Shown piece after piece: positions 2,952-51,748 of a stretch of 64,000 nt of DNA. The stretch's first letter is position 1, and each line of letters starts with the position of its first letter. A program made the position numbers and the translations under genes. Below the pieces are notes generated by a model. The model had not been told where the DNA came from. It did not search any database and saw nothing but the letters and a program-made list of their open reading frames with translations. The DNA comes from Flavobacterium sp. (GTDB lineage Bacteria; Bacteroidota; Bacteroidia; Flavobacteriales; Flavobacteriaceae): positions 132,504 through 196,503 of the forward strand of contig JAYRXL010000059.1 of the NCBI GenBank assembly GCA_041917555.1, written 5' to 3'.

Positions 2952-3581
2952 TTATTTACTTAAATTTTCAACAATTCCCTCTACAGACCCTTCTGTAAGC
3001 ACTAAATTATTTGCATTTAAAATTGCATAAGTACTTAATTCTGAAGAAGTTACAACTGAAGACGCCTTCAAATTGCGTGACGACAAATATACATTTTTAT
3101 TTGTATCACCCAACACCATTAATGATTTTTTGTTTTCAATGCCAAGGGCTTTCAAAACAGAAATGTATTTTTTAGTGTTTGGCGTATCAAAACTGAAATC
3201 TTCAACCACAATCAAATTTGAATCTTTAACTTTTAAAGAAAGAGCAGATTTACGCGCTAATCTTTTAAGTGTTTTGTTCAATTTGAAAGAGTAGTTTCTT
3301 GGTCTTGGACCGAAAATTGTACCACCACCTTTGAAAACAGGGCTTTTAACACTACCTGCACGGGCCGTACCGGTTCCTTTTTGTTTTTTCACTTTGCGTG
3401 TACTTCCGGTAACTTCATTACGCTCTTTTGCTTTATGAGTTCCTTGTCTTTGATTAGCAAGATATTGCTTAACATCAAGATATACCGCATGGTTGTTTGG
3501 CTCTATACCAAAAACTGAATCCGAAAGAGTTACTTTTCTCCCGGTTTCTTTTCCGTTGATATCTAAAACTTTTACTTCCAT
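2952..3581 (-). CDS. rplD: 50S ribosomal protein L4
   Basis: RQGTHKAKERNEV; QKGTGTARAGS; FGPRPR. Confidence 0.98.
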   Translation of the reverse strand: MEVKVLDINGKETGRKVTLSDSVFGIEPNNHAVYLDVKQYLANQRQGTHKAKERNEVTGSTRKVKKQKGTGTARAGSVKSPVFKGGGTIFGPRPRNYSFKLNKTLKRLARKSALSLKVKDSNLIVVEDFSFDTPNTKKYISVLKALGIENKKSLMVLGDTNKNVYLSSRNLKASSVVTSSELSTYAILNANNLVLTEGSVEGIVENLSK

Positions 3582-8347: not shown

Positions 8348-9991
8348 TTGAAAAACTTTTTTTACATACTATTTATAATTACCATTCCGTTGCATGCTCA
8401 AAAAATCCAACTTACCGTGAGTGGTTCGACGGAACAGGAGACACGCGTTTTGGACTCGGTTGGTTATGCTAAGGAAGTGAACCATGAAAATGAAGCAGCG
8501 ACCGAGGTAAAAAAACTTTCCGAAAAATTGGAGCGTTTGGGTTATCTTGATTTACAATACAGTTTGCAATCGGCGCCACCCGCAACTTTAGCTTATCAAT
8601 TTCGACTCGGAATTCCGGTACGTTTAGTACACCTATATATAGGTAAACAAGAAAGAGAATGGATTGGCACATCAGAAGACACCTTACTACTTCCATTTAT
8701 TGCCCTTGAAGACCAATTGAAAGGCTTTTCCAAAAAATTGGAGAATCAAGGTTATCCCTTAGCATCGGTGACCCTGCAAGATATTAGTCACCAAGGAAGT
8801 ATTTTAAAAGCGCGGCTTAGCGTAATACGCAATGAAAAAAGAACAGTTAACGAGGTTATTATTGAGGGTTATCCTAAATTTCCGGTTGGTTTTCGCAAGA
8901 ACATAAACCGCAACTATGTCGACAAACCATTTAGCCGGGAAACCATTTCCAAAATAGAGGCTGATTTTAGGAACCTTCGGTTTGTAAAGCAAGTAAAAGC
9001 GCCCGAGGTATTGTTTATGAAAGACAGCACTAAGGCTTATGTTTTTGTGGAAAAAAGCAAGTGCAATACCTTTGATGGCTTTTTAGGATTTGGCAACAGC
9101 GAAACAGGTGCCACTCGACTTGCCGGTTATTTGGACTTACAGTTGACCAACATTTTGAACTCCGGGGAACAAATTGCCGTTAAATGGCGCAGTGACGGGA
9201 AAGATCAGAAAACATTTCAATTGGAAACCGAATTTCCGTATATCCTAAAAACGCCAATTGCCCTACAATTACAGTTACATATTTTCCGACAGGATTCCAC
9301 TTTTCAAAATTCAAAATCGCAGATTGGGCTTGGTTATTATTTTAGGAACAACTCGAAACTGTTTTTAAATTACCGGATGACCGAATCGAGTGATATTCAA
9401 AACCGCAATTCGGCTCTATTAAGCGATTACGAGAGCACTTTTTTTACGGCCAGCTACACCTTTTCGAAAGTGGGAGAAGATTATCCGTTTGAACCTGTTT
9501 TAGACCTACAAACACAGTTTGGATCCGGAAGCAGGAAAGATAAGATTACCGACAACAATCAGCTATTAGGAAGGATTGAGGCCCGAACAATACTAAAACT
9601 CAATTCGAAGAACCACTTATTTATAGCCAATCAGAGTGCTATTTTAGTGAGCGACCGCTATTTGACCAATGAGCTATTCCGTTTTGGCGGAATACAATCG
9701 ATTCGAGGGTTTGCCGAAAACAGTCTTCAAGCCGACAAGATGACCCTCTTTATGACTGAGTACAGGTATAAAATTTCGCCGGGAATTTACATACATACAC
9801 TAACCGATTTTGGCTTTTACAGCGACAAAACCACAGAAATGAGTCGGAAACCATTCGGTTTTGGTATCGGAACAGGCATTCGAACCCAAAATGGCTTATT
9901 GAAGATTATTTATGCTAACAGCACTGATAACAAACAGGTTATCCAGCTTCGGAATTCCATTATTCACATCAATTTCAAAACTTTTTTCTGA
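8348..9991 (+). CDS. BamA/TamA (Omp85)-like outer membrane protein
   Basis: Signal peptide, POTRA-like region, FRFGGIQSIRGF loop motif, C-terminal Phe. Confidence 0.75.
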   Translation: MKNFFYILFIITIPLHAQKIQLTVSGSTEQETRVLDSVGYAKEVNHENEAATEVKKLSEKLERLGYLDLQYSLQSAPPATLAYQFRLGIPVRLVHLYIGKQEREWIGTSEDTLLLPFIALEDQLKGFSKKLENQGYPLASVTLQDISHQGSILKARLSVIRNEKRTVNEVIIEGYPKFPVGFRKNINRNYVDKPFSRETISKIEADFRNLRFVKQVKAPEVLFMKDSTKAYVFVEKSKCNTFDGFLGFGNSETGATRLAGYLDLQLTNILNSGEQIAVKWRSDGKDQKTFQLETEFPYILKTPIALQLQLHIFRQDSTFQNSKSQIGLGYYFRNNSKLFLNYRMTESSDIQNRNSALLSDYESTFFTASYTFSKVGEDYPFEPVLDLQTQFGSGSRKDKITDNNQLLGRIEARTILKLNSKNHLFIANQSAILVSDRYLTNELFRFGGIQSIRGFAENSLQADKMTLFMTEYRYKISPGIYIHTLTDFGFYSDKTTEMSRKPFGFGIGTGIRTQNGLLKIIYANSTDNKQVIQLRNSIIHINFKTFF

Positions 9992-10085: not shown

Positions 10086-13000
10086 ATGAAAACAAAGTTC
10101 AATTTGATTATGACACTGGTAACAGTGTTGTTCATGCAGTTCGTGGCTGCGCAAGAACGTGTTGTAACGGGAGTAGTGTCCGACAATACGGGATTGCCGT
10201 TACCGGGAGCGAATGTGAATGTCAAGGGGAGCACAAGTGGTGTGCAAACCGACATGGATGGTAAGTATTCCATCAAAGCTAAGGAAAATGATGTGTTAGT
10301 GTTCAGTTATTTGGGCATGCAAACACAAGAGGTAAAAGCCTCTTCCACCAAAATCAACATTAAACTCAAAGACGGTTCTATCGAACTGGAAGGAGTTGTA
10401 GTAACGGCTTTGGGTATCAAGCGAGAGAAAAAAGCATTGGGTTATGCTACCCAAGAAGTTAAGGGCTCGGATGTTTCGGATACTCCGGTAACAAACTTTG
10501 CGGACGCACTATCCGGTGAAGTAGCCGGTTTGGACATCCAGTCTTATGGTACAATGGGAGGTTCTGCCAACATTGTTGTACGTGGTTACAAATCGCTATT
10601 TGGCAGCAACCAGGCTTTAATTGTAATTGATGGTACTCCGGTACAAAATGACACCTACAACTCTTCGGATCAAAAAACAGGTAGAGGTGGTTACGATTAT
10701 GGAAATGCTGCTATGGATATCAACCCGGACGACATTGAAAGTCTGAACGTTTTGAAAGGTGCTGCTGCAACCGCTTTATATGGTTCGCGTGCTTCAAATG
10801 GAGCTATCGTAATTACTACCAAAAAAGGGAAAAAAGCTAAAGGCATTGGTGTTACTGTGAACTCATCGTTAACAGTAGGTACTGTGGATAAAGAAACGCT
10901 TCCAAAATACCAAGATAAATATGGTGCGGGATACGGTCCTTATTATGATGACCCTTATTTCCTTAACTATGACTTGACCGGTGACGGAAATATCGACCAA
11001 GTTGTACCATTTACAGAAGATGCTTCGTATGGTGCGGCTTTCGATCCAAACTTATTAGTATACCAATGGACCTCAATTTTCCCACAATTACCGGGTTATT
11101 TAGTACCTACTCCATGGGTTGCTGCTGAACATACACCAAACGATTTATTTGAAAGCGCTATCACTACAACCAACTCAATCTCGTTTGGCAAAAACAGTGA
11201 CAATGGCTCTTTCCGTTTAGGTTTTACCAATAAAATTCAGGAAGGTGTTGTGCCAAACAGTAAAATCAAACGTAATACACTTACCTTCTCCGGCAGTCAA
11301 AAATTCAATGACAAGTTAACCGGATCAGTTGATTTTTCTTACACAAACACAAATGGTAAAGGCCGTAACGGAACCGGGTACGACTCAAACAATCCAATGC
11401 AGGCATTCAGACAGTGGTTCCAAACCAATGTTGATATTTACCAACAACGTGATGCCTTTTTCAATACAGGAGGTCAAAATATTACTTGGAACGTAAACTC
11501 TTCTGATGATTTGTCTCCTATTTACACCGATAACGTTTACTGGGTATTGTACAAAAACTTCCAAACAGATAGTAGAGATCGTTATATGGGTAACTTTACC
11601 TTAAACCAAAAAATAACAAAATGGTTAAATGTAACGGCTCGATTTGCCTACGATACTTACTCTGAAATACGTGAAGAGCGTACCGATGTGGGATCTTCTA
11701 ATGTATCAGACTATACGGTTACCAACCGAAAAGCTTCTGAATTAAATTATGATTTGATGGCAAACATTAATCATAATATCACAGAAGATTTAAATTTAGA
11801 TGCGCTTGCCGGTTTTAATTTACGTGTAAATAAATTAAACTCGTTAGCTGCTTCTACCAATGGTGGACTTGTTACTCCTGGTTTATTCACCCTTTCTAAC
11901 TCGGTTAACTCGTTAACTTCAAACGATTATACCAAAGTAGATTACACCAAAAAGGTTGACGGGGTATTTGGTAAAGTTGGTTTAGGCTATAAAGGGACTT
12001 ATTATATCGATATTACAGGAAGACAAGACCGCTCTTCGGCCTTACCAAGAGACAATAATACGTATTTCTACCCTTCCGTTTCTTCTAGTATTGTATTCTC
12101 AAACCTACTTAAAAAAGATTGGTTGAGCTTTGGTAAAATTCGCGCTAATTATGCCGAAGTGGGTAACGATACAAACCCTTATCAGATATTCAACACTTAT
12201 GCTGTTGGAGCATCTTTTAATGGTTCTCCTACTGCGAGTAACCCAACTTCATTTAATAATCCTGAGCTAAAAGCAGAAACCAGTAAAGACTTTGAAGTGG
12301 GTATGGAAGTACAAATGTTTAAAAACCGTTTTGGTTTTGACGTTTCGTACTACAAAAGAAAAACAGTTGATTTGATTACGCCAATTGATGTATCAACTTC
12401 AACCGGGGCTACCAGCCTTTGGTTAAATGGTGCCGATATGGAAAATAAAGGTATCGAATTGGTAGTTAACGGTACTCCGGTGAAAACTTCCAACTTCTCT
12501 TGGGATATCAAAGTAAACTATGCTTCGAACAGAAGTGAGGTAACGCGTTTGGCAGAAGGTATTCAATTCCTTCAATTAGCTAGCGTACAAGGTGGTGTTA
12601 CATTAGGTGCTGCTTTAGGTGAACCTTTTGGTGTAATTCGTGGACGTGATTTTGTATACCATGAAAATGGACAACCAATCGTTGGTACTAATGGTTACTA
12701 TTTGAGAACTGCATCTAGCAATAATGTGATTGGTAATATCAATCCGGATTGGACCGGTGGTGTTAAAAACACATTCAAATATAAAAACCTTAGTTTGGGT
12801 GTATTAATTGACATCCAAAAAGGAGGTGATGTATTCTCATTAGACACTTATTATGGTTATGCAACAGGTCTTTACGATTTCACAGCAGGTACAAATCACT
12901 TAGGAAACCCTGTTCGTGATGATGTAGCCAACGGTGGTGGTGTTATTTTGCCTGGTGTTCAAGCTAATGGTTCGCCAAATACTGTGGTTGCAGATGCTAC

Positions 13001-24026: not shown

Positions 24027-25382
24027 TTACATTATCAATCCTTTAACCTCTTCAAAATCGAGTCCGCCATAGTTCCCTGAGCTCATGAGTAATAAGGACG
24101 TATTTTCAAAGTTGTAGCCAAACAAAAATGCTTTAAATTCGGCCGGATTGGTGAAAATAATCAAGTCGTCGCGTTTGAAAGAAGCAGCAATTTGTTCGTA
24201 GGTAACTTCTTCGAGTTGCTTTATTTTAACGGCATCGGGCGAATAGAAAACTACGGCTATATCTGCCGCATCCAGCGCTCCTTGGTATTCTTTAAGAAAT
24301 TCGGCATTAAGGCTGCTGTAGGTATGTAATTCCAAACAAGCTATCAATTTACGATCAGGGTATTGCCCTTTAACAGCTTGGGTTGTTGCGGTTACTTTGC
24401 TTGGTGAATGCGCAAAATCCTTGTAGGCGACTTTTGTAGCACTTTCGGCAATTTTTTCCAAGCGTTTGGATGCTCCCTTGAATGTAGCGATGGCTTCATA
24501 GAAGTCGGCTTCATCCACACCCATACATTGGCAAACCCATTTGGCACCAGCCAAATTATTCAAATTATGCGCTCCAAAAACCTCAATAGGCATGGCACCT
24601 TCGGGAGTATCTAAAAGAGTGGTTCCGTTTTGGACTGTGTAGGCCGGAGTTGTGTATGGAATTTTGCGAATTGCATTTTCCGAATTTTCGGCGACTTTTT
24701 TAACTGTGTCATCTTCTTCATTGTAAATTAAAATACCGCCATTGGTAATTTGGTCAACAAAAATTTCAAATTGCGCTACATAATTTTCGAAGGTTGGAAA
24801 CACATTGATATGATCCCAGGCTATACCCGAAAGTAAGGCAATATTAGGCTGGTACAGATGGAACTTAGGACGACGATCGGTTGGCGACGATAAATATTCA
24901 TCGCCTTCCAAAACGATAAATTCGTTGGTTTCGGTTAAGTGAACCATCGTATCAAAACCTTCCAATTGTGCTCCCACCATGTAATCGACCTCAATATTGT
25001 GGTAGTGCATCACATGCAAAATCATGGACGTAATGGTAGTTTTGCCATGGGATCCGCCGATGACCACACGTGTTTTGGTTTTGGACTGTTCATATAAATA
25101 TTCCGGATAGGAGAAAATTTTCAAGCCCAATTCTTGTGCACGCAACAATTCGGGATTATCCGGTTTTGCGTGCATGCCCAGAATAACGGCTTCTATTTGA
25201 GTAGTGATTTTCTCAGGAAACCATCCTAAGGCTTTAGGGAGTAAGCCGTGTCGCTCCAATCGAGAACGAGAGGGTTCAAAAATAGCATCGTCACTTCCGG
25301 TTACGTTGTATCCTTTGTGGTGAAGAGCCAATGCCAAATTGTGCATTGCGGCTCCGCCTATGGCTATGAAATGTGTACGCAT
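24027..25382 (-). CDS. mpl: Murein peptide ligase (Mpl/MurC-like); start MRTHFIAIGG
   Basis: HFIAIGGAAM; GSHGKTT; EGDEY; DFAHSP; the 11-aa ORF-track extension derives from the repeat. Confidence 0.85.
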   Translation of the reverse strand: MRTHFIAIGGAAMHNLALALHHKGYNVTGSDDAIFEPSRSRLERHGLLPKALGWFPEKITTQIEAVILGMHAKPDNPELLRAQELGLKIFSYPEYLYEQSKTKTRVVIGGSHGKTTITSMILHVMHYHNIEVDYMVGAQLEGFDTMVHLTETNEFIVLEGDEYLSSPTDRRPKFHLYQPNIALLSGIAWDHINVFPTFENYVAQFEIFVDQITNGGILIYNEEDDTVKKVAENSENAIRKIPYTTPAYTVQNGTTLLDTPEGAMPIEVFGAHNLNNLAGAKWVCQCMGVDEADFYEAIATFKGASKRLEKIAESATKVAYKDFAHSPSKVTATTQAVKGQYPDRKLIACLELHTYSSLNAEFLKEYQGALDAADIAVVFYSPDAVKIKQLEEVTYEQIAASFKRDDLIIFTNPAEFKAFLFGYNFENTSLLLMSSGNYGGLDFEEVKGLIM

Positions 25383-25865
25383 TTGAAATTCCAATTTAAA
25401 AATTCCAAATCCCAATAGTTGGAATTTGGGATATGTTTTTTGTTATTTATTTTCGAATTGTTCTTTTAACTGTTTTGCCTTTGTTTTGTCTTTGATTTTA
25501 TTCAAGTAAAAATGGTATAATTTCTGAAATGTGGTTTTTGAATTCCCAATTTAAAAATTCCAAATCCCAATAGTTGGAATTTGGGATTTGTTTTTTTGTT
25601 ATTTACTTTCGAATTGTTCTTTTAATTGTTTTGCCTTTGTTTTGTCTTTGATTTTATTCAAGTAAAAATGGTATAATTTCTGAAATGTGGTTTTTGAAAT
25701 TCCAATTTAAAAATTCCAAATCCCAATAGTTGGAATTTGGGATTTGTTTTTTTGTTATTTATTTTCGAATTGTTCTTTTAATTGTTTTGCCTTTGTTTTG
25801 TCTTTGATTTTATTCAAGTAAAAATGGTATAATTTCTGAAATGTAGTTTTTGAATTTCCAATTTC
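25383..25865. repeat. Tandem triplication, 156-bp period
   Basis: gttattta(t/c)tttcg recurs at 25442, 25598 and 25754; unit is the last ~33 codons of the TPR gene plus the downstream hairpin. Confidence 0.95.
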
Positions 25866-42177: not shown

Positions 42178-42187
42178 AAATTATTAT

Positions 42188-42242
42188 AAATTATGAATTT
42201 TAAATTTTGAATGAAAATCGTATCATTTAAAATTCATAATTT
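42188..42242. repeat. Perfect 18-bp AT-rich inverted repeat
   Basis: aaattatgaattttaaat (42188-42205) / atttaaaattcataattt (42225-42242). Confidence 0.9.
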
Positions 42243-42261
42243 AAAATTCAAAATAAATAAA

Positions 42262-42744: not shown

Positions 42745-42751
42745 TTTTTAT

Positions 42752-42958
42752 GGGAAGCTATTTCCCGCTGTCCGCTGTATATGTCATTGCGAGCAGTGCG
42801 AAGCAATCTGTAAAAGGAATTGCCACGTTCCTCGCAACGACAGGATGCCGCTTCCATCGGGCCTGCCTGCCGGAAGGCAGGGCTAAGGGAATCCGATTTC
42901 ATAAAATAGTATAATAACTTAGAAAACAGAACGAGATTGCTTCGTTCCTCGCAATGAC
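42752..42958. repeat. Nested mosaic: scaffold repeat with GTCATTGCGAG REP-like arms and a CCTGCC mini-hairpin
   Basis: Arms at 42783-42809 (forward), about 42817-42841 (degenerate reverse) and 42934-42958 (reverse); cctgcc-ggaa-ggcagg at 42866-42881. Confidence 0.85.
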
Positions 42959-42959
42959 C

Positions 42960-44987
42960 ATGAAAATACTTACTCAAAAATTCCAAACCAAACACGAAAC
43001 TGTTCCGTTTTCGCAAATTAAATTAACCGATTACAAACCGGCTTTCGAAGCGAATATCGCCTCAGCTAAAGCTGAAATTGATGCCATTGCACACAATCCG
43101 GAACCGGCCACGTATGAAAATACCATTGTAGCGCTGGAATTTTGCGGCGAAGCACTTGACCGCCTCTCGACGTTGTTTTTCAACCTTAATTCGGCCGAAA
43201 CCAGCGACGAAATGCAACAAATCGCCCAGGAAGTTTCGCCTTTGTTAACCGCTTACAGCAACGACATTGCGCTGAATGAAGCCTTATTTTTACGGGTTAA
43301 AACCGTGTATGACCAAAAAGAAACCTTGCCTTTGAACACGGAGCAAAAAACAATGCTCGATAAAAAATTCAAGTATTTTTCCCGTAACGGTGCTCTTTTG
43401 CCCGAAAGCAAAAAAAGTCGCTTGCGCGAAATTGATACCGAACTTGCCAAACTCAAACTCACCTTTGGTGAAAATGTATTGGCCGAAACCAATAACTACC
43501 AATTACACATTACCAACGAAGCCGATTTAAAAGGTTTGCCTGATGGAACCATAGAAATGGCGCGTTCGTTAGCGCAATCAAAAGACTTAGAAGGCTGGAT
43601 TTTCACGTTAGATTTTCCAAGTTATTTACCGTTTGTAACCTATGCCGATAACCGAGAACGACGCAAAGAAATTAGTATCGCCTATGGTAAAAAAGCATTT
43701 CAAGGAAATGCTTATGACAATGTGGAGAATGTTAAAAACATTGTGCGGCTACGTCATGAGCGCGCCCAGTTATTGGGTTATGCCAGTCATGCTCATTTTG
43801 TTTTGGAAGAACGCATGGCACAACACCCCGACAAGGTAATTGCTTTTTTGAATGATTTATTGGAGAAAGCGAAACCGGCTGCCGAACGGGAATTTGCCGA
43901 ACTAACGGATTTTGCAAAAAACTTGGATGGTATTGAGCAACTCGAAAAATGGGACGCCTCGTATTACAGTGAAAAGTTAAAACAAAAGCGATACAGTTTG
44001 GATGATGAAATTTTGAAACCCTACTTTAAACTCGAAAATGTTTTGCAAGGCGCTTTTACCGTGGCAGAGAAACTATACGGGATTCGGTTTCATGAAGTGC
44101 ATGATATTGACAAATACCACGAGGATGTGACCACCTATGAAGTAATCGACATAGAAGGCACATTTGTAGCGGTTTTGTATGCTGATTTTTTCCCGCGAAA
44201 AGGCAAACGCAACGGAGCTTGGATGACATCCTACAAAAACCAATGGATTCGAGACGGATATAACAGTAGGCCACATATTTCGATTGTTTGCAATTTCACA
44301 CCTCCAACTCCTACCAAGCCTTCGTTACTTACTTTTAATGAAGTGACTACCCTTTTTCATGAATTTGGGCATGCGCTGCATGGGATGTTAGCCAATACAG
44401 AATATCCGAGTATATCGGGGACTTCGGTATATTGGGATTTTGTGGAATTACCGAGCCAAATTATGGAAAACTGGTGTTATGAACCGGAAGCCTTGGCTTT
44501 ATTTGCCAAACATTATGAAACCGGCGAAATTATACCCCAGCAGTATGTTGAAAAAATAAAAGAAAGCGCTTCCTTTTTGGAAGGCATGGCTACGTTGCGC
44601 CAGCTAAGTTTTGGGTTGTTAGATATGGCCTATCACGCAAAAATGCAAGACATTACTGACGTAAAAGCCTTTGAAAAAGAAGCCATGCAAATTGCCTCGT
44701 TATACCCTGATGTGGCCGAGAATTGCATGAGTGTTTCATTCTCCCATATTTTTCAAGGCGGCTATTCATCCGGTTATTACAGCTATAAATGGGCCGAAGT
44801 TTTGGATGCAGACGCTTTTGCTTATTTCCAAGAAAAGGGAATATTTAATCCTGAAGTCGCCGGCAAATTCAAAGACAATGTGCTCTCTAAAGGAGGCACC
44901 GAATTGCCGATGGAATTGTACAAACGCTTTAGAGGACAGGAACCAAAAGTAGAGGCATTGTTGAAAAGAGCGGGGTTGATTTCCTAA
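42960..44987 (+). CDS. M3 family peptidase (Dcp/oligopeptidase A-like)
   Basis: GKRNGAWM; TLFHEFGHALH; DFVELPSQ; YYSYKWAEVLDAD. Confidence 0.94.
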   Translation: MKILTQKFQTKHETVPFSQIKLTDYKPAFEANIASAKAEIDAIAHNPEPATYENTIVALEFCGEALDRLSTLFFNLNSAETSDEMQQIAQEVSPLLTAYSNDIALNEALFLRVKTVYDQKETLPLNTEQKTMLDKKFKYFSRNGALLPESKKSRLREIDTELAKLKLTFGENVLAETNNYQLHITNEADLKGLPDGTIEMARSLAQSKDLEGWIFTLDFPSYLPFVTYADNRERRKEISIAYGKKAFQGNAYDNVENVKNIVRLRHERAQLLGYASHAHFVLEERMAQHPDKVIAFLNDLLEKAKPAAEREFAELTDFAKNLDGIEQLEKWDASYYSEKLKQKRYSLDDEILKPYFKLENVLQGAFTVAEKLYGIRFHEVHDIDKYHEDVTTYEVIDIEGTFVAVLYADFFPRKGKRNGAWMTSYKNQWIRDGYNSRPHISIVCNFTPPTPTKPSLLTFNEVTTLFHEFGHALHGMLANTEYPSISGTSVYWDFVELPSQIMENWCYEPEALALFAKHYETGEIIPQQYVEKIKESASFLEGMATLRQLSFGLLDMAYHAKMQDITDVKAFEKEAMQIASLYPDVAENCMSVSFSHIFQGGYSSGYYSYKWAEVLDADAFAYFQEKGIFNPEVAGKFKDNVLSKGGTELPMELYKRFRGQEPKVEALLKRAGLIS

Positions 44988-44991
44988 ATGA

Positions 44992-45354
44992 TCATTGCGA
45001 GGAGGAACGACGAAGCAATCTCTAATGAAACAAGGTTTTACTTATATCATAACTAATAACAATAATACAACTTTGTATGTTGGTGTAACTTCTAATTTAC
45101 CCAAACGAATTTTAGAACACAAAGAAAAAAGATATCAAGACTCATTTTCTGCACGATATAACTTGTGCAAATTGGTATATTATGAGCAATTTCATACTAT
45201 TGTAGATGCCATTGCACGAGAAAAACAATTAAAAGCAGGTTCTAGAACAAAAAAACTGAAACTAATTGAAACTTATAATCCGGAGTGGAAGGATTTGTTT
45301 GATCACATTCAGAGTTGATTGGGAAGATTGCTTCGTCGTTCCTCCTCGCAATGA
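44992..45354. mobile_element. Candidate element: GIY-YIG gene between perfect 30-bp terminal inverted repeats
   Basis: tcattgcgaggaggaacgacgaagcaatct (44992-45021) is the exact reverse complement of 45325-45354; mobility is inferred, not shown. Confidence 0.65.
45025..45318 (+). CDS. Stand-alone GIY-YIG nuclease (97 aa)
   Basis: TYII...LYVGVTSNL..R..EH; AIAREKQLK; NPEWKDL. Confidence 0.92.
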   Translation: MKQGFTYIITNNNNTTLYVGVTSNLPKRILEHKEKRYQDSFSARYNLCKLVYYEQFHTIVDAIAREKQLKAGSRTKKLKLIETYNPEWKDLFDHIQS

Positions 45355-45390
45355 CTACTAAATTAGAAACCACATTTGAAACACTTTACC

Positions 45391-45462
45391 GCGTTAGGGA
45401 TGGCAGTGGCATCCTTTTGTGCAATGCAATGGAACAAAAGATAAAGCGAACAGCCCGACCCC
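45391..45462 (+). repeat. Uninterrupted copy of the scaffold repeat (possibly Flavo-1-like)
   Basis: gcgttagggatggcag...atccttttgt-loop-acaaaagat...agcgaacagcccgaccc. Confidence 0.7.
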
Positions 45463-45544
45463 GATGGATAAAAACAAGTGACAAACGTAGTTTTTACCAA
45501 TCGAGGGTAACGCCACAAAAAACAAACAATTTTGAGCAAAAAAA

Positions 45545-51042: not shown

Positions 51043-51564
51043 ATGTACGAAAAAACATATCCAAGCAAACGCTTCAACCTGACCTTAGCTTTTTTAAAAA
51101 AACACATTGCTACTTCAGAAACTATTTTCGATTTAGGTGTTCCGAATCCGTTTTCTAAAATCATGGAAGAAAATGGTTATAAAGTCATCAATACATCCGG
51201 TGAAGATTTGGATGAAAACCAAAACGCTTTAAAAGAGCAGGAATATGAAGTGTTTACCGCTTTTGAAATCTTCGAACACTTACTCAATCCGTATACAGTT
51301 TTACAAAATGTGAAATGCGATAAAGTGCTGATTTCAATTCCGCTACGTTTATGGTTTTCACCTGCGTATCGCAGCAAAACAGACATGTGGGACCGCCATT
51401 ACCACGAATTTGAAGATTGGCAATTGGATTGGCTTTTAGAAAAAACAGGATTTAAAATTGTGGACCGAGTGAAGTTTACACATCCGGTTAAAAAATTCGG
51501 AATCCGACCGTTGTTGCGTTATTTTACACCACGCTATTATATGGTTTACGCTGTTCGTCAATAG
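51043..51564 (+). CDS. Small SAM-dependent methyltransferase-like protein
   Basis: IFDLGVPN; FEIFEHL.NP. Confidence 0.7.
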   Translation: MYEKTYPSKRFNLTLAFLKKHIATSETIFDLGVPNPFSKIMEENGYKVINTSGEDLDENQNALKEQEYEVFTAFEIFEHLLNPYTVLQNVKCDKVLISIPLRLWFSPAYRSKTDMWDRHYHEFEDWQLDWLLEKTGFKIVDRVKFTHPVKKFGIRPLLRYFTPRYYMVYAVRQ

Positions 51565-51708
51565 CAATAGCAATGGCAATGAAAATGACAATGGCAATGG
51601 CAATGACAATGGCAATGACAATGGCAATGACAATGACAATGGCAATGGCAATAGCAATACCAATGACAATGGCAATGAAAATGGCAATGAGAATGGCAAT
51701 GGCAATAG
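51559..51708 (+). repeat. Degenerate hexamer array, (CAATGR)-type, 25 units
   Basis: Counted 25 consecutive 6-mers beginning at the stop-containing caatag. Confidence 0.95.
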
Positions 51709-51748
51709 CAAATTCAAAAGTTAACTTCAATTTTTTATAGTTTACACT

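Follow-up and report, generated by a model that had tools for sequence, protein, structure and literature searches.

Gene-less hairpin arms near an Ssn-like GIY-YIG nuclease gene in a Flavobacterium as probable recognition sites of the nuclease

A stretch of 64,000 nucleotides (nt) from the assembly of a Flavobacterium sp. (GCA_041917555.1, contig JAYRXL010000059.1, positions 132,504 to 196,503), referred to below as the window, carries five copies of a short composite hairpin repeat, here called arms. Three of them (arms A, B and C) lie, without a gene, in the spacer between purE and an M3 peptidase gene (42745-42959). The other two bracket an ssn-like gene for a small GIY-YIG nuclease just past the M3 gene, about 2 kb from the spacer arms, and form with it an arm-gene-arm cassette. 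The features of interest, in window coordinates, are the following:

42783-42809, plus strand: arm A, an intact gene-less hairpin of the 26-nt class (GTCATTGCGAGCAGTGCGAAGCAATCT), similar to the Ssn-related motifs (SRM) described below.
42817-42841, minus strand: arm B, a degenerate hairpin of the 24-nt class, 'GTG' subtype (reverse complement GTCGTTGCGAGGAACGTGGCAATTC).
42783-42841, no strand: doublet A+B, a heterotypic plus/minus pair with a 7-8 nt spacer and its GTC ends outward.
42934-42958, minus strand: arm C, an intact solo hairpin of the commonest type (GAGGAACGAA; reverse complement GTCATTGCGAGGAACGAAGCAATCT).
44991-45021, plus strand: left cassette arm (ATCATTGCGAGGAGGAACGACGAAGCAATCT), beginning 3 nt past the M3 stop codon and lying 3 nt before the ssn ATG.
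45025-45318, plus strand: ssn-like gene for a single-domain GIY-YIG nuclease of 97 amino acids (aa), with its ATG at 45025 and its stop codon at 45316-45318.
45325-45355, minus strand: right cassette arm, of canonical GTC...C form, the reverse complement of the left arm, 6 nt past the ssn stop.

The first-pass annotation of this DNA had placed the three spacer sequences at these positions, the last of them ending 1 nt before the M3 ATG, and had read them as gene-less copies of the GIY-YIG terminal repeat with shorter loops; all of this holds. The termini GTCATTGCGAG...CGAAGCAATC are common to the spacer arms and to the 30-nt inverted repeats round the GIY-YIG gene, which makes the spacer arms gene-less members of the same repeat family. 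The window contains 6 matches to GTCATTGCGAG with at most one mismatch, where shuffled sequence leads one to expect 0.54, and 4 matches to ATTGCGAG-N3-25-GCAATC against an expectation of 0.00. The loop, measured from the conserved GTCATTGC to GCAATC, is 12 nt long in arm A, 10 nt in B and in C, and 16 nt in the two cassette arms. The spacer arms match the cassette arms over their outer 11 + 11 nt and differ from them in their inner parts; because the inner stem-loops differ, none of the three is a copy of a cassette arm.

Arm A reads, in order, GTC, ATTGC, GA, GC-AGT-GC, GAA, GCAAT and C, followed by T. Arm B has three defects: an A>G change that leaves a G.T first stem pair, GTG in place of GAA, and T in place of the C past the palindrome. 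Its ortholog at a related locus (L124) has both the first stem pair and the post-palindrome C intact. Arm C ends at 42958 and the M3 start codon lies at 42960; an in-frame ATG at 42954, inside arm C and two codons 5' of the conserved M3 start, lengthens the mechanical call of the M3 open reading frame (ORF). The cassette arms are 100% complementary across 30 nt (44992-45021 with 45325-45354), and the left one begins with ATC, not GTC, in the window genome and in strain L002, and with GTC in L124 and L125. As single-stranded DNA (ssDNA), the doublet folds into a single long hairpin of -12.4 kcal/mol, with a z-score of -2.6 against shuffles.

The anatomy of the arms was derived from two comparison sets, one of 80 Bacteroidota loci round ssn homologs and one of 120 motif-bearing stretches from IMG/VR (1.08 Mb, 229 arms). 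An arm consists of an unpaired 5' GTC, a 5-bp stem ATTGC/GCAAT, GA opposite GAA, a small variable stem with a GNA triloop, and an unpaired 3' C. For the outer stem we searched 2.4 Mb with the skeleton GTC-N5-GAG-N3-CGAA-N5-C, both N5 blocks being left free, for which we estimate about one match by chance. The search returned 124 matches, and the two blocks were complementary at five of five positions in 102 of them; double compensatory forms of the outer stem are ACTGC/GCAGT (n=7) and ATCGC/GCGAT (n=3). A GNA triloop (GAA, GCA or GTA) is present in 117 of the 124. In the 26-nt class, which includes arm A, 99 arms have GC/GC as their inner 2-bp stem, 17 have AC/GT and 3 have GG/CC; longer arm variants hold longer complementary inserts, such as GGCG-CTTT-CGCC and GTCCCGATAG/CTATCGGGAC. 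When all pairs were counted, 94% of cells were paired and 17 both-side changes were found, against 3.4 +/- 1.6 in shuffles (none of 500 reached 17); the sequences had been pre-filtered on the outer stem, so that helix 2 is the unbiased part of this count. Covariation supports both stems of the arm. The unpaired GTC and C are the most conserved letters, and the base before GTC (position -1) is non-G in 95-97% of arms, in agreement with the 'H' of the published SRM pattern.

The gene between the cassette arms provides a link to a recently characterised system. Ssn proteins (CDD cd10448, GIY-YIG_unchar_3) are single-domain GIY-YIG nucleases of about 94 aa that are site-specific and act on ssDNA only (Chenal et al., Nat Commun 2025, PMC11893778). 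SsnA of N. meningitidis binds a directional hairpin repeat called NTS, CGTCATTCCCGCGMAVGCGGGAATCYRG, and cuts a few nt upstream of it, on that strand only; the 3 nt before the palindrome govern cleavage and the C directly past it is the most important for binding (PMC11893778). In many phyla ssn genes are flanked by SRM, and gene-less SRM are dispersed at extragenic positions (PMC11893778). Bacteroidota are not mentioned in the main text of that paper, and our literature search found no later paper on the Ssn family.

PF01541 is the sole domain of the window protein (residues 4-77 of 97, 2e-15), with no match to Y1_Tnp. The catalytic residues Y7, Y18, R28 and E66 (Tyr, Tyr, Arg, Glu) are invariant in the alignment, and no other ssn-like ORF occurs in the 64 kb. 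As a proxy for a reference Ssn protein, we scanned IMG/VR contigs for the exact NTS core and sought homologs among their ORFs with phmmer. One contig (L296) encodes a 103-aa ORF between GTCATTCCCGCgaagGCGGGAATC and its inverse, with exact NTS-type repeats GTCATTCCCGC-N4-GCGGGAATC on both sides. The window protein is 47% identical to this NTS-flanked ORF (E 4e-28), which stands in for Neisseria SsnA; its identity to YhbQ of E. coli, another small GIY-YIG protein, is only 22% (E 2e-5). A C-terminal NP.W.DL motif and the catalytic residues are common to the window protein and the NTS-flanked group. Two further contigs with NTS repeats about 270 nt apart (L246 and L257) were rejected as ssn loci, as there is no ssn gene between the repeats. 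A PDB sequence search with the window protein gave nothing useful, and in PADLOC and NCBIfam it had matches at noise level only, none of them to a specific family. By homology, we predict that the 97-aa protein is an Ssn-family, site-specific ssDNA endonuclease.

The resemblance extends to the organization of the locus. As in the Ssn/SRM system, the protein is a single-domain GIY-YIG nuclease of about 95-100 aa, its gene is bracketed 5' and 3' by inverted copies of a directional hairpin repeat of 20-50 nt, and the gene-less copies are extragenic. Both repeats follow the frame GTCATT...AATC-Y, in which GTC precedes and C follows the palindrome and the base ahead of GTC is not G. The repeats differ in that the stem of the window arms has 5 bp (ATTGC/GCAAT) whereas that of NTS has 8-9 bp (ATTCCCGC/GCGGGAAT), and in that GA/GAA and a variable mini-hairpin, capped by a GNA triloop, come after the window stem. 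The host differs too, being a non-symbiotic Flavobacterium from activated sludge, and so does the scale, with a local cluster of five copies in the window against hundreds in Neisseria. Because of the protein homology and the shared repeat frame, we file the window system as a putative member of the Ssn/SRM kind, its repeat being a presumed lineage-specific sequence variant.

Arms associate tightly with ssn genes. Among the 80 Bacteroidota ssn loci, arm density within 200 nt of ssn is about 100 times that beyond 2 kb, where about one arm per 20 kb remains, and the usual layout is a plus-strand arm ahead of the ATG and a minus-strand arm past the stop. Arms are extragenic: 10% fall within ORFs of at least 150 aa, against 73% of random positions. 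In the IMG/VR set, an Ssn homolog is encoded in only one of the 120 arm-bearing stretches. There (contigs L004-L123) the motif frame is common in high-GC 'viral' contigs (median 56% GC), mostly with GAGCGAAGCGAA middles, and the repeat family therefore reaches well beyond Bacteroidota, with most copies far from a nuclease gene.

Where two arms are paired, the plus/minus orientation with GTC outward dominates over minus/plus, by 45 to 19 in Bacteroidota and 39 to 3 in IMG/VR, with a typical spacer of 21-30 nt. The two arms of a doublet are rarely identical (4 of 45 and 4 of 39; in the related loci 41 of 45 are heterotypic), whereas 9 of 20 cassettes have identical left and right arms. For this reason doublets are not simply cassettes that have lost their gene. 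The window doublet, which joins a 26-nt GAA-type and a 24-nt GTG-type arm, is a typical doublet and not a gene-deleted version of the local cassette.

Some further features of the arms were observed beside ssn genes. The two arms of a cassette (44991-45021 and 45325-45355 in the window; also L132 and L403-L416) change together between lineages, both being of the long or both of the short type, and their triloops are both GAA in some lineages and both GTA in others. This concerted change suggests gene conversion, or selection that keeps the two arms able to pair across the gene. Locus L131 has tandem truncated half-arms (8933-9100 and 9918-9990) beside a full doublet and ssn, with seven copies of GTCATTGCGAGGCACGAAGC-acagccgc and four of cacacactcGCAATGAC, and L125 has a partial duplication of the right arm (3067-3120).

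We consider it probable that arms A, B and C are orphan (gene-less) recognition hairpins, of a Bacteroidota type, for the neighbouring Ssn-type ssDNA nuclease, and that they form with the arm-gene-arm cassette an old local cluster. The first-pass annotation had proposed that the gene-less arms depend on the nuclease in trans. Such a relationship remains the best reading, the gene being Ssn-like and characterised members of that family binding ssDNA hairpins of this kind and cutting just 5' of them (PMC11893778). On the model of the Neisseria enzyme, the DNA would become single-stranded during replication or on uptake by transformation or conjugation, the Ssn-type protein would bind the folded hairpin on the GTC...C strand, and it would then cut a few nt 5' of GTC. 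Recombination of incoming or replicating ssDNA, and with it gene flow, might be affected. If the Neisseria determinants apply, all of them are retained in arms A and C and in the right cassette arm; arm B would be expected to bind poorly because it has lost the C past the palindrome, and the left cassette arm to be cut poorly because it carries ATC in place of GTC.

Several observations weigh against this interpretation. The published SRM string, HGTCWYN(0-2)YYVSBRHN(0-5)WNVSBRGN(0-2)RNCYNB, has no match in the window and matches none of the five arms, whereas the NTS control does match. That string is an operational search string, not a biological definition of the family, and we therefore take the arms to be a Bacteroidota sequence variant. 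In nearest-neighbour DNA folding, a single arm reaches only -1.7 to -2.7 kcal/mol, which is no improvement on shuffles; since the energy model gives no credit to tandem G.A pairs or GNA triloops, it is covariation, together with these motifs, that supports the hairpin. A fuzzy search of the 64-kb window, allowing two substitutions per half, gave no further convincing copy, and all five arms of the window lie inside 2.6 kb, where a Neisseria genome has hundreds. Finally, in a metatranscriptome (X9) that covers purE, the spacer and M3, no contig runs across the ssn ORF, with the caveat that contig depth measures expression poorly.

How old is this cluster? In strain L002, whose M3 protein is 99% identical, all five arms are present. 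L124 (M3 78% identical) has the doublet and the cassette without arm C; L131 has the doublet and arm C at the orthologous site, but its ssn gene lies elsewhere; in L125 and L132 the cassette is present and the spacer is free of arms. Arm C is thus present in L002 and L131 and absent from L124, L125 and L132. Scanning metagenomes for M3 yielded 80 further orthologous purE-M3 loci (M3 71-82% identical, 504 kb in total), none with an intact arm or an ssn gene; with a best match of 82% aa identity, these comparisons are at the level of species, not strains. The lone trace in these 80 loci is a truncated arm just past the Flavo-1 element downstream of M3 (see below) in L333 and L336. A neighbour-joining tree of M3 does not unite the three cassette-bearing groups in one clade.

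Strains of the same species differ as well. In three sequencing runs from activated sludge (X5, X11 and X13), contigs run from the 3' end of M3 (44982) through 154 unrelated letters to 45391, the 154 letters standing in place of the 408-nt segment 44983-45390. The 365-bp cassette is therefore missing in those strains, and X5 contigs of similar depth still contain the beginning of arm A and the whole of arm C. In X5, at least six contigs carry an identical 31-nt arm with different flanks beyond it. Arms and cassette turn over between species and even between strains, and nothing suggests ongoing transposition. Three junctions seen in the metagenome (42780>42842, 42808>42935 and 42809>45324) were considered as local deletions and rejected, since their matching sides are only 20-24 nt long and their depths differ; they are best read as other Flavo-1 or arm copies elsewhere in the metagenome. 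In other lineages (L322, L323 and L125; L352, L361, L363 and L365), the purE-M3 spacer is filled with unrelated short repeats, cacagag/ctctgtg and actgagactgaga units.

Could the gene-less arms be mobile? The first-pass annotation saw in them derivatives resembling REPINs (inverted doublets of repetitive extragenic palindromes, REP) or miniature inverted-repeat transposable elements (MITE): non-autonomous elements in which the doublet and the solo arm would be deleted or miniature versions of the arm-gene-arm unit, copied by the nuclease in trans. The authors of the Ssn study see a likeness to insertion sequence (IS) elements and to REP and their RAYT transposases, and raise the same idea, with mobility and domestication as a hypothesis only (PMC11893778). 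The architecture lends itself to this view: plus/minus doublets with outward GTC and a preferred spacer length dominate in two independent samples. So does the turnover just described, with the 80 orthologous loci that lack intact arms, doublet and cassette, the non-monophyletic cassette-bearing lineages, the different ssn site of L131, the same-species strains without the cassette and the identical 31-nt arm in differing flanks.

The traces that movement should leave are another matter. There is no target-site duplication, in that no direct repeat occurs at the doublet flanks, and no conserved target beyond the non-G at -1. The arms of the doublet differ from each other and from the cassette arms, and copies are only local in the 64 kb. 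The doublet is kept at the same site in L002 and, in other species, in L124 and L131, with arm B decaying in place. Three sets of identical Ssn proteins, found on dozens of contigs from many samples, each occur in one genomic context: the gene for P0001 follows M3, and those for P0059 and P0032 stand between DMT_6 and Cupin_2 genes, where arms again adjoin the upstream stop codon and the downstream start codon. Doublets identical including their spacer were found at different loci only as orthologs and tandem duplicates; as the sample consists of different genomes, it is uninformative on spread within a genome. To our knowledge, GIY-YIG nucleases are hydrolytic and have no strand-transfer activity, and we know of no transposition activity for any Ssn protein. 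Overall we regard this explanation as rather unlikely at best. The first-pass annotation was right about the architecture, then, and probably about the relationship in trans; its REPIN/MITE reading is borne out only in part. It had also held that copies confined to this place and fixed across relatives would speak against its proposal; within the window the copies are indeed local, but they are not fixed, the 80 orthologous loci lacking them.

The system can also be compared with known mobile ones. REP sequences, grouped in bacterial interspersed mosaic elements (BIME), also surround a small nuclease gene as inverted hairpin repeats (RAYT, or TnpA-REP, an HUH Y1 protein; REPINs belong here too), and have extragenic solo copies, inverted doublets and tandem clusters; their doublets, like ours, can combine two hairpin types (the Y and Z units of BIME), and the genes are likewise stable and domesticated-looking. 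However, the window nuclease is a hydrolytic GIY-YIG enzyme (PF01541), whereas HUH/Y1 enzymes form a covalent intermediate. REPIN arms are near-identical, unlike those of the heterotypic window doublet, of which the window has no second example, and copy number here is very low. The window arms depart from a MITE in that only the outer 11 + 11 nt match the cassette arms, the inner parts differing, and in lacking a target-site duplication. With the IS200/IS605 family, in which TnpA acts by single-strand 'peel and paste', the system would share a small nuclease, imperfect ssDNA hairpins and cleavage a short distance away. In IS200/IS605, however, the ends are on the same strand and differ from each other, while here the arms are reverse complements with their cleavable forms on opposite strands, and no HUH domain is present. 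The turnover, the stable gene contexts and the heterotypic doublets are less suggestive of an active MITE than of a domesticated system that rarely moves, and the local copies look like an old, partly decayed cluster that is gained and lost over evolutionary time and is not currently spreading.

The doublet has a host hairpin in the Flavo-1 motif of Rfam (RF01705; Weinberg et al. 2010), an RNA motif with two matches above its gathering score in this region, one of which encloses the doublet:

42757-42868, minus strand: Flavo-1 copy 1, 43 bits (gathering score 42), its apical stem-loop replaced by the doublet.
45383-45464, plus strand: Flavo-1 copy 2, 51 bits (gathering score 42), intact, 27 nt past the right cassette arm.

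Flavo-1 is the host hairpin and not the repeat studied here, and its conserved basal stems are unrelated to the arms. Many orthologous purE-M3 spacers (for example L373, L326, L327, L343 and L400) have Flavo-1 in the same place, with conserved basal stems and differing apexes of 17-70 nt, mostly a T-run/A-run stem round variable sequence. Since these spacers share the site and differ in the apex, the basal hairpin is ancestral and its tip hypervariable. The doublet forms this tip in the window lineage, and a single T.A pair remains of the old stem. The second Flavo-1 is kept after M3 in cassette-less loci (L373, L333 and L336). In L125 (3167-3226) and L124 (about 10420-10480) the apex of the downstream Flavo-1-like element contains the 16-nt middle of a cassette arm (CGAGGAGGAACGACGA), without the outer stem of the arm. 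A GC-rich hairpin, gcctgcctgccggaaggcagggc, just 3' of the Flavo-1 and doublet (42860-42885) is duplicated in L002 (507-560) and has an 8-nt deletion in one X5 contig. A general linkage of Flavo-1 and ssn was rejected: a box search of the 80 ssn loci found Flavo-1 beside arms only in the purE-M3-ssn syntenic group.

In the transcriptome of F. psychrophilum, Flavo-1 matches lie sense, antisense and outside transcribed regions (PMC9723704), a pattern that would be compatible with a repeat at the level of DNA. The conserved base and hypervariable apex suggest that Flavo-1 may be a hairpin of the DNA itself, with an exchangeable tip. One could go further and suppose that Ssn-type hairpins preferentially colonise the tips of extruded intergenic hairpins, such as Flavo-1 apexes and the terminator region past a stop codon, that Flavo-1 is a DNA hairpin with a hypervariable 'cargo' apex and not a small RNA, and that the cassette entered the 3' end of M3 independently in several lineages. 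We think this extended scenario unlikely; if true, it would represent hairpin-tip-targeted insertion driven by a GIY-YIG ssDNA nuclease.

A rival reading is that the arms act as RNA, whether as terminators, mRNA-stabilising hairpins, regulators in the M3 5' untranslated region or part of a Flavo-1 RNA, the nuclease having no role. Their position at gene boundaries would suit such elements, with 1 nt between arm C and the M3 ATG and 3 nt between the left cassette arm and the ATG of ssn, as would the doublet at the apex of Flavo-1, an RNA-seq contig (42582-42958) that contains the spacer, and two weak terminator-like sites that a consensus scan places in arms B and C on the minus strand. But terminator-like sites are about as frequent in shuffles (4.2, against 5 found), all lack a proper T-run, and the RNA contig continues across the doublet. 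With respect to the neighbouring genes the arms point either way, and the repeat family tracks ssn genes. The strong conservation of the unpaired GTC and C is a better fit to a protein-recognition site than to a bare structural hairpin, and the scatter of Flavo-1 matches in F. psychrophilum (PMC9723704) also argues against a purely RNA-level element. We judge a function at this level very unlikely. That the resemblance is due to chance, or that these are ordinary inverted repeats with no relation to the GIY-YIG arms, might be suspected from the shortness of single arms (24-26 nt) and their unremarkable folding energy, and is almost certainly wrong, given motif counts far above shuffled expectation and a composite motif that recurs hundreds of times in related loci, with covariation.

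Other repeats in the window were recorded apart from the arms. Positions 51535-51741 hold about 200 nt of the hexamer repeats CAATGG/CAATGA/CAATAG (family D1 of the repeat scan), and positions 25382-25864 hold three tandem copies of a 156-nt unit that are 82-84% identical (families D2 and D3). An AT-rich inverted repeat at 42183-42260, with arms of 23-29 nt that are 86-96% complementary, spans the purK-purE junction and the annotated start of purE.

If the gene-less arms are orphan sites of the Ssn-type nuclease, as we think probable, the Ssn nuclease/hairpin-repeat system, studied so far in Neisseria and a few Proteobacteria, would extend to free-living Flavobacteria. Beyond the 2025 description, this locus adds a motif anatomy that the published pattern misses, doublets of unlike arms, cassette arms that change in concert, and arms nested in Flavo-1. 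For annotation, it accounts for the very common spurious small ORFs and 'repeats' beside GIY-YIG genes. The predicted pairs of nuclease and site may serve as ssDNA tools. The turnover of the arms, the stable contexts of the genes and the heterotypic doublets also bear on the mobility of SRM-type repeats.

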